From Escherichia coli (GTDB lineage: Bacteria > Pseudomonadota > Gammaproteobacteria > Enterobacterales > Enterobacteriaceae): 64,000 nucleotides of DNA. The DNA lies in the NCBI RefSeq assembly GCF_017348835.2, contig NZ_CP071375.1, one strand, 5' to 3'. Of the stretch, positions 47,501 through 50,040 are shown one piece after another; position 1 is the first letter of the stretch, and every line of letters begins with the position of its first letter. The notes under the pieces were generated by a model. It saw only the letters and a list, made by a program, of their open reading frames with translations, ran no database searches and was not told the DNA's origin. The translations under genes and the position numbers were made by a program.

Positions 47501-47698
47501 CTGATGACCTCGCTGGCATTTATCTTCGGCGTATTGCCAATGGCAACCAGCACGGGTGCCGGTTCCGGTGGTCAGCATGCGGTGGGTACTGGCGTAATGG
47601 GCGGGATGATTTCAGCTACTATTCTGGCTATTTACTTCGTGCCGCTGTTCTTTGTGCTGGTGCGCCGCCGCTTCCCGCTGAAGCCGCGCCCGGAATAA
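44585..47698 (+). CDS. acrD: RND aminoglycoside efflux pump
   Basis: 1037-aa ORF. Confidence 0.94.
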
Positions 47699-47702
47699 GC
47701 AA

Positions 47703-47737
47703 TAAAAAAGGCGACATGCCAATGTGTCGCCTTTTTC
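47703..47737. terminator. Intrinsic terminator after acrD (also downstream of ypfM on the other strand)
   Basis: aaaaaa-ggcgacatgccaatgtgtcgcc-ttttt. Confidence 0.65.
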
Positions 47738-47796
47738 AACTTTCCGATTAAGAACTTGCTCAGCAGGTTCTTGCTGTTTGTACTTTGTCTCAGGAA

Positions 47797-47856
47797 TTAC
47801 TTACGAAGCATAACTTCAATAAAGTCTTTCCAGTTCCCCAGTTCACGTTCAATCAT
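47797..47856 (-). CDS. ypfM: Small protein YpfM (19 aa)
   Basis: Reverse-strand micro-ORF MIERELGNWKDFIEVMLRK with GAGAGG RBS; not in the 60-aa ORF track. Confidence 0.6.
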   Translation of the reverse strand: MIERELGNWKDFIEVMLRK

Positions 47857-48218
47857 AACAACCTCTCTTATAATTATGGGTATTCTACGGAAACAATATA
47901 CCGTGGTGAAGCTAATTTACTCGATTGCTGCGATGACTACCTCCGGGGGACAAACCTTATGTAAATACTATGGTCCTGCGGTGATGATTTGTATGTGATA
48001 CACAGCAACATTTCGAGATATTCATACGGCATCTAATACTGATTTAATTCTGGTTAAAATACAGACAGATAACAAGATGAATATTCTTAATGTTTACGTT
48101 AAAAATGTTTAATATTATTTAATAGTTGTTAATTTGAATACTTCGATAATGTTATATTTCCTGATAATCATTTGCAGGCAAAATGTTTTCACCCTTAAAT
48201 GAGTATTTATTCTCATAA

Positions 48219-48593
<375 letters not shown>

Positions 48594-49751: not shown

Positions 49752-49952
49752 ATGGACTGGCTGGCTAAATATTGGTGGATTCTGGTGATTGTCTTTTTGG
49801 TAGGCGTCCTGCTGAACGTGATTAAAGATCTCAAGCGCGTCGACCATAAGAAATTTCTCGCCAACAAGCCGGAGCTTCCCCCGCATCGTGATTTCAACGA
49901 TAAGTGGGACGATGACGACGACTGGCCGAAAAAGGATCAACCGAAGAAGTAA
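49752..49952 (+). CDS. ypfN: Small membrane protein YpfN
   Basis: ORF trimmed to ATG 49752 ([14 protein letters not shown]...); 66 aa. Confidence 0.8.
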
Positions 49953-49960
49953 GCTAAGTG

Positions 49961-50040
49961 GCCGGATAAGGCGTTAACGCCGCATCCGGCAATGGTGAAC
50001 GATGCCTGATACGACGCATCACGCGTCTTATCAGGCCTGG
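49961..50040. repeat. REP element
   Basis: gccggataaggcgttaacgccgcatccggca and partner. Confidence 0.5.

Follow-up and report, generated by a model that had tools for sequence, protein, structure and literature searches.

MgtS (YneM) is a 31-aa membrane protein whose partners, MgtA and PitA, are known. AzuC, a 28-aa small protein that forms an amphipathic helix, is the product of an RNA that was initially annotated as an sRNA; this RNA, AzuCR, has a demonstrated base-pairing function, and the partner of the protein is GlpD. AcrZ, the small protein found on the RND pump AcrB, is a 49-aa transmembrane helix.

The 19-codon gene ypfM has been predicted since 2001, and the transcript of its Salmonella ortholog is known as STnc250 (PMC2515195). 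STnc250 maps between acrD and yffB, gives a Northern signal of ~220 nt in Salmonella and was 4-fold enriched in Hfq co-immunoprecipitates (24 reads against 6); its authors reclassified it as 'a small mRNA gene' (Sittka et al. 2008, PMC2515195). RNA-seq in S. Typhi ranks ypfM/STnc250 first in abundance among the Hfq-associated RNAs that were mapped (PMC2704369). The peptide has been observed directly: a 2025 proteomics study of E. coli recovered the intact 19-aa YpfM by top-down mass spectrometry with 100% sequence coverage and the N-formyl-Met retained, detected it by DIA and PRM as well, and noted its earlier detection by Schmidt et al. (PMC12529367). M63 low-Mn2+ medium was the only condition in which PRM quantified YpfM in every replicate (PMC12529367). 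No function is assigned to ypfM in the literature searched. Here we describe the ypfM locus in a stretch of 64,000 nt from the E. coli contig NZ_CP071375.1 (hereafter the window), in which a preliminary description, made from the sequence alone, had drawn attention to a very short reverse-strand gene.

Results

Identity of the open reading frame

The minus-strand translation of positions 47797-47856 is MIERELGNWKDFIEVMLRK*, identical to the 19-codon product given in the preliminary description. The ribosome-binding site claimed there is present as a Shine-Dalgarno sequence 5' of the start codon (Table 1), and the placement of the gene between acrD and yffB is likewise correct: the acrD ORF, encoding a 1037-aa RND transporter, ends on the plus strand at 47698, and yffB, a 118-aa ORF of the ArsC family, starts on the same strand at 48237. 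The neighbouring acrD terminator is probably a G+C-rich hairpin with a T-run at 47738..47703 on the minus strand, which starts at a distance of 5 nt from the stop codon of acrD. The remark that length filters easily miss such a gene describes the ORF list of this very window, which has a floor of 20 aa and does not contain the 19-codon ORF. The match to the known small protein YpfM, which the same description had proposed, is borne out by the RefSeq annotation and by the NCBIfam equivalog family NF033843.

Table 1. Features of the ypfM locus in window coordinates
Feature	Position	Strand	Details
ypfM coding sequence	47797..47856	(-)	19 codons and TAA stop (47799..47797); ATG at 47856..47854; product MIERELGNWKDFIEVMLRK
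Shine-Dalgarno sequence AAGAGAGG	47862..47869	(-)	upstream sequence ...TAAGAGAGGTTGTTATG; 5 nt before ATG
Proximal sigma-70-type promoter P1 (putative)	47882..47910	(-)	TTCACC (47910..47905), 17-nt spacer, TAGAAT (47887..47882)
ypfM 3'UTR, stop codon to terminator	47739..47796	(-)	not conserved; column identity mostly <50%
ypfM intrinsic terminator (predicted)	47697..47738	(-)	stem AAAAAGGCGACA / UGUCGCCUUUUU and U-tract; 14 pairs and T-run in terminator scan
Distal unit	47967..48008	(-)	TTGC-N6-TCAC block (48008..47995) and -10-like CATAGT (47972..47967); alignment of 22 genera

Of 5426 complete E. coli genomes, 5425 contain the 651-bp segment spanning acrD, ypfM and yffB, which is 100% identical in strains PE164 and F2_81. 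It has 5446 matching places, one of them in a record with a plasmid label; two copies are present in a few genomes. The promoter and the ORF taken together (126 nt) are at least 99% identical in 5023 of 5424 E. coli records. Among the matches listed, RefSeq labels the ORF throughout as ypfM, 'protein YpfM' (WP_001386977.1), with acrD and yffB as its flanks. Padded with the upstream in-frame valine to a query of 20 aa, the peptide matches NF033843 (small_YpfM) over profile positions 1-19 of 19 with 59.2 bits against a curated cutoff of 33 (E = 2.4e-16). No Pfam family matches YpfM, and a PDB sequence search with E values up to 10 returned no chain with the peptide, so that no solved structure contains it.

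We put the probability that this ORF is ypfM and encodes a protein at about 0.9; nothing was found against either its identity or its coding status. The gene is already known: it has been predicted, RefSeq annotates it in practically all E. coli genomes, and both its RNA and its peptide have been verified. The published mass-spectrometric detection is stronger evidence of translation than the ribosome profiling or epitope tagging that the preliminary description had suggested.

Conservation of the coding sequence

A 19-codon ORF is by itself not above chance, since 21 ORFs of 20 aa or longer overlap this 900-nt stretch, and these bystanders are what would speak for a chance ORF in an intergenic region. 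What lifts ypfM above them is the comparison across species. The regions around yffB were collected from 80 other species genomes, and the peptide was sought in all six frames. The ORF is kept at 72 of the 80 syntenic loci, from Escherichia to Dickeya, always antisense to and upstream of yffB, with best-match scores of 73-100 against second-best scores of at most 30 at the same loci. Its length is exactly 19 codons at 71 of the 72 loci. The Lelliottia nimipressuralis locus (L032, 1052-1111 on the minus strand) carries a stop-loss variant with K19N that reads on to 30 aa, MIERELGNWKDFIEDMLRNDLQEELQEHLI.

Codon positions vary very unequally. Among 56 distinct DNA versions the start codon is ATG in all 56, and the stop codon is fixed in position but not in identity—TAA in 36, TGA in 16 and TAG in 3. 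The mean column entropy amounts to 0.170, 0.179 and 0.632 for codon positions 1, 2 and 3, the third exceeding the first two about 3.6-fold, and variable columns number 7, 4 and 15 of 19, respectively. The mean dN across the same versions is 0.047 against a mean dS of 0.743, with a median dN/dS of 0.055. A substitution pattern of this kind, as judged from the alignments, marks a sequence that is translated and subject to strong purifying selection. Together, the retention at 72 of 80 loci, the codon-position bias, the low dN/dS and the fixed stop position separate ypfM from the chance ORFs around it; with the NF033843 match and the mass-spectrometric detection they refute a chance ORF, which we hold to be the least probable of all the readings considered here.

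A few synonymous sites are almost frozen across genera: codon 5 is GAA in 56 of 56 versions, codon 7 GGG in 51 of 55, codon 8 AAC in 50 of 50 and codon 10 AAA in 55 of 56. GGG at codon 7 is a non-preferred codon and the other three are preferred ones. This may reflect a constraint at the RNA level or chance. Codons 5-9 (47829-47843 on the minus strand) hold the tandem heptamer GAACTGG-G-GAACTGG.

Genomic neighbourhood

The gene ypfM is divergent from yffB-dapE-ypfN at all 72 loci and convergent with acrD at 70 of them; no locus has acrD without ypfM, and the eight loci that lack ypfM all lack acrD too. In three of the Enterobacteriaceae (L053, L065 and L068) neither gene stands upstream of yffB. 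Unrelated small ORFs replace the whole segment at L053 and L065, and the N-terminus of yffB is extended there. In Dickeya oryzae (L079) ypfM adjoins yffB, and genes resembling cspA and crcB stand where acrD would be.

Because Dickeya oryzae keeps ypfM next to yffB without acrD, the pairing of ypfM with yffB is the older of the two. The co-occurrence with acrD is weak evidence for a functional tie, as single deletions remove adjacent genes together. AcrD, considered as a partner because of this co-occurrence, was set aside: the same pattern would follow from adjacency, and Dickeya has ypfM in the absence of acrD.

The products of the divergent genes yffB and dapE were probed as partners with AlphaFold2 models of fusions joined by a (GGGGS)6 linker and built on species-paired alignments; these models came with neither PAE nor contacts and so constitute a weak test. 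In the YffB-(GGGGS)6-YpfM model, YffB reaches a pLDDT of 80-94 and the peptide stays below 50, leaving a partnership unsupported. The DapE fusion is poorly modelled throughout, with a mean pLDDT of 43.7 from an alignment of eight sequences at 94% identity, and lends no support to a partnership either. Both models draw YpfM as a helix, with low confidence.

Elsewhere in the window, the nucleoid-associated, REP-derived RNA naRNA4 (RF02564) is matched with 85.7 bits at 49960-50037 on the plus strand, just downstream of ypfN (~49752-49952). This is the only Rfam match above its gathering score in the whole window, and the window contains no tRNA genes.

Transcription unit

Conservation along the cross-species alignment peaks at the -35 and -10 hexamers, the Shine-Dalgarno sequence, the ORF and both arms of the terminator, and is low in the central 3'UTR. 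The proximal promoter, P1, is the single sigma-70-like site returned by a consensus scan, and a genomic SELEX study lists the same hexamers for ypfM (PMC3946193). Its -10 hexamer reads TAGAAT, TATAAT or TAAAAT in 62 of 73 sequences, and in 56 of 73 its end lies 25 nt upstream of the ATG; the -35 hexamer reads TTCACA, TTCACC or TTCACT in 46 of 73. From the position of P1 we infer a transcription start near 47875, which would give a 5'UTR of ~19 nt and an RNA of ~175 nt. The Shine-Dalgarno columns are 80-100% identical among 72 distinct flank sequences, and a motif of this kind precedes ypfM in 73 of 73 upstream sequences. The minimum free energy fold pairs the Shine-Dalgarno sequence with a segment of the 3'UTR; that segment is unconserved, and sequestration of the ribosome-binding site was therefore given no weight.

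Two regulators have been placed in the spacer between ypfM and yffB by others. H-NS binding is marked there by genomic SELEX (PMC3946193), and a MarA site has been reported between the two genes in Salmonella, to which the E. coli spacer offers no counterpart when up to 3 mismatches are allowed.

Some E. coli strains (PCP06171, Z503 and CUVM53) carry an IS1A element flanked by a 9-bp target duplication of 47900-47908, that is, inside P1. The insertion (560-1327 of locus L083) converts the -35 hexamer from TTCACC to CCCACC and severs ypfM from the distal unit described below. Since these strains bear IS1 within the promoter, full expression of ypfM is evidently dispensable in some backgrounds.

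The 3'UTR changes in length as well as in sequence, the distance from the ypfM stop codon to the end of acrD ranging from 75 to 258 nt among species. In E. coli it contains a local hairpin at 47773..47749. The stem arms of the terminator are 80-100% conserved, and its hairpin is kept in both the minimum free energy and the centroid folds. An A-run and a T-run on opposite sides of the stem, together with its location 5 nt from the acrD stop codon, suggest that the same structure ends acrD; judged by its sequence, one terminator probably serves both convergent genes.

A leader peptide is also of the size of YpfM, and a hairpin following a short ORF is what a cis-acting attenuator controlling a downstream gene would present. 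The layout of the locus speaks otherwise. Downstream of ypfM there is no gene in the same orientation, only the terminator and, past it, the 3' end of the convergent acrD, and the unconserved stretch between stop codon and terminator implies that there is no conserved antiterminator alternative. Moreover, it is the peptide sequence that is conserved, rather than runs of regulatory codons, and the peptide accumulates stably. The gene order excludes control of this kind, to which we give a negligible probability.

Distal conserved unit

A second conserved element lies ~110-150 nt upstream of the ypfM start codon and consists of AAAT(A/G)TTGC-N6-TCACAT, followed 22 nt later by CATAGT. Of 73 sequences, 60 contain the TTG-N7-TCAC block, each of them with a -10-like hexamer at the fixed offset (CATAGT in 42, CATATT in 12). 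If CATAGT acts as a -10 element, the transcript would begin near 47960, which would place the centre of the block at -41.5, a geometry of the class II CRP/FNR type. Control by MntR or Fur, an idea raised by the quantification of YpfM in low-Mn2+ medium, was considered and dropped: on inspection by eye, the conserved CATAGT does not lie in a conserved palindrome.

The expected lengths of the Salmonella RNA, by our own arithmetic, are ~237 nt from the distal start and ~153 nt from the proximal one. The Northern band of ~220 nt fits the distal start better, being closer to the first of these values. The distal unit also stands back to back with a candidate plus-strand yffB promoter (TTCGAG at 48012-48017, AATACT at 48035-48040), and equally with the published yffB promoter TTCATA-16-TTTAAT at 48021-48048. 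It may thus serve the divergent yffB promoter, or both genes, and perhaps not ypfM at all.

RNA-level properties of the transcript

The Salmonella-based Rfam model STnc250 (RF01409) scores 36.9 bits in a 301-nt search (E = 7e-6), below its gathering score of 42. It aligns to 47817..47698 on the minus strand and covers the last six ypfM codons, the 3'UTR and the terminator: the first small hairpin of the model corresponds to the last codons of the ORF, and the terminator hairpin matches well. Between them lie 52 nt in E. coli against 13 in the model, some 40 nt more, and the middle hairpin is lacking; these differences account for the score below the gathering threshold. The ypfM transcript is therefore an STnc250 ortholog by position and by its terminal elements, and not a formal member of the Rfam family. 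Rfam files STnc250 as 'Gene; sRNA', whereas it is part of the ypfM mRNA. The model of CsrC was also matched, with 19-20 bits against a gathering score of 61; this is at chance level, as is the count of three GGA motifs in 180 nt, and CsrC was set aside.

The first cataloguing of STnc250 as an sRNA candidate and its Rfam class would suit a purely non-coding, Hfq-binding sRNA with an untranslated ORF. Such an RNA would not be expected to display three-nucleotide periodicity, a dN/dS of ~0.055, and a conserved start codon, stop position and Shine-Dalgarno sequence, and this coding pattern and the recovery of the intact peptide by mass spectrometry (PMC12529367) refute the reading, to which we assign a negligible probability.

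Harder to dismiss is a transcript that encodes YpfM and, like SgrS/SgrT, Spot 42/SpfP or AzuCR/AzuC, also serves as a regulator or sponge through Hfq-dependent base pairing. The 4-fold enrichment of STnc250 on Hfq in Salmonella (PMC2515195), the strong terminator hairpin with its U-tail, which is the usual Hfq-binding module, and the match to the STnc250 model at 36.9 bits would all be expected of such an RNA, and the near absence of synonymous change at codons 5, 7, 8 and 10, among them the non-preferred GGG, could find an explanation in it. Yet three of these four codons are preferred ones, and the enrichment on Hfq is modest, with small read numbers behind it. The 3'UTR, the sole non-coding stretch able to carry a seed, is conserved in neither sequence nor length; accordingly, no conserved seed was found in it. 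No target of ypfM RNA is reported in the literature searched, and the authors of STnc250 themselves moved it to 'a small mRNA gene' (PMC2515195). On balance, we consider a dual function of the transcript unlikely, and prefer to read it as the mRNA of a small protein.

Properties of the peptide

YpfM is a polar peptide. Eight of its 19 residues are charged, its mean Eisenberg hydrophobicity is -0.12, and no hydrophobic run exceeds two residues. With this charge and hydrophobicity it cannot span a membrane, and a search for a hydrophobic transmembrane segment of the kind expected in a type I toxin or small membrane protein found none.

The distribution of its residues fits an amphipathic helix. 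The hydrophobic moment at 100 degrees equals 0.546, against 0.265 ± 0.133 in composition-preserving shuffles, of which 2.8% reach the observed value; at the non-helical angles of 120, 160 and 180 degrees the moment falls to 0.12-0.28. This statistic is modestly significant for so short a peptide. Conservation follows the same geometry. Across 21 distinct protein variants the residues M1, I2, E5, W9, K10, F12, I13, M16, L17 and R18 are invariant; positions 4, 8, 11 and 15 are free to vary, and seven different residues occur at the last of these. Of the 11 positions that lie within 95 degrees of the hydrophobic moment, 9 are invariant, against 1 of the 8 on the opposite face (Fisher p = 0.0055), and conservation correlates with helix face (Spearman rho 0.60, p = 0.006). 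K10, E14 and R18 form an i/i+4 ladder.

These properties lead us to propose, tentatively, that YpfM is a soluble amphipathic alpha-helix, stabilised by the ladder, that docks its conserved face onto something larger.

Discussion

The ypfM locus is a genuine small-protein gene of the E. coli core genome, transcribed on its own as a monocistronic unit. Its RNA accumulates as a short stable transcript, known in Salmonella as STnc250, and its peptide accumulates in cells with the formyl-Met in place. In the mechanism we propose, the K10-E14-R18 ladder probably stabilises the helix, and the conserved face (I2, E5, L6, W9, F12, I13, M16 and L17) would dock onto a larger partner protein or a membrane surface. 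The docked peptide might then modulate its partner, as most characterised bacterial small proteins do.

A more elaborate scheme would join the distal unit to this picture. A putative distal promoter, conserved across Enterobacteriaceae and perhaps shared with the divergent yffB-dapE-ypfN operon, could yield an RNA of ~260 nt in E. coli, and this longer RNA may be the Hfq-bound species with a regulatory role of its own. The combination of a distal promoter, control by the CRP/FNR family, a longer Hfq-bound regulatory RNA and a peptide acting on a neighbour such as AcrD seems to us improbable as a whole; if true, it would make the ypfM locus more than a constitutive mini-gene.

The case also offers a calibration. 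A reading of the raw sequence without tools recovered a 19-codon gene that length filters drop, and synteny, codon-position bias and stop-codon turnover separate this gene cleanly from chance ORFs of the same size. YpfM is one of the shortest verified proteins of E. coli. Handles on its role are offered by the conserved helical face, by the promoter-like distal unit and by the IS1 elements found in the promoter of natural strains.

Among described systems, YpfM of E. coli K-12 is this very gene in another strain, with the same 19-aa sequence and the same opposite-strand position between acrD and yffB, and no difference. The resemblance to AcrZ-AcrB lies in the co-inheritance of ypfM with the gene of an RND pump, observed at 70 of 70 acrD loci; here, however, the small protein is not hydrophobic, and the co-occurrence may be mere adjacency. 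AzuC shares no sequence similarity with YpfM, but it was, with YpfM, one of the two further small proteins whose quantification was limited to the low-Mn2+ M63 samples (PMC12529367). YpfM is too polar for the membrane spanning of MgtS, but the two genes have a common history of discovery, in the same papers: like ypfM, MgtS (YneM)/STnc570 is a small ORF in a short, stable, Hfq-co-precipitated transcript that was first listed as an sRNA candidate.
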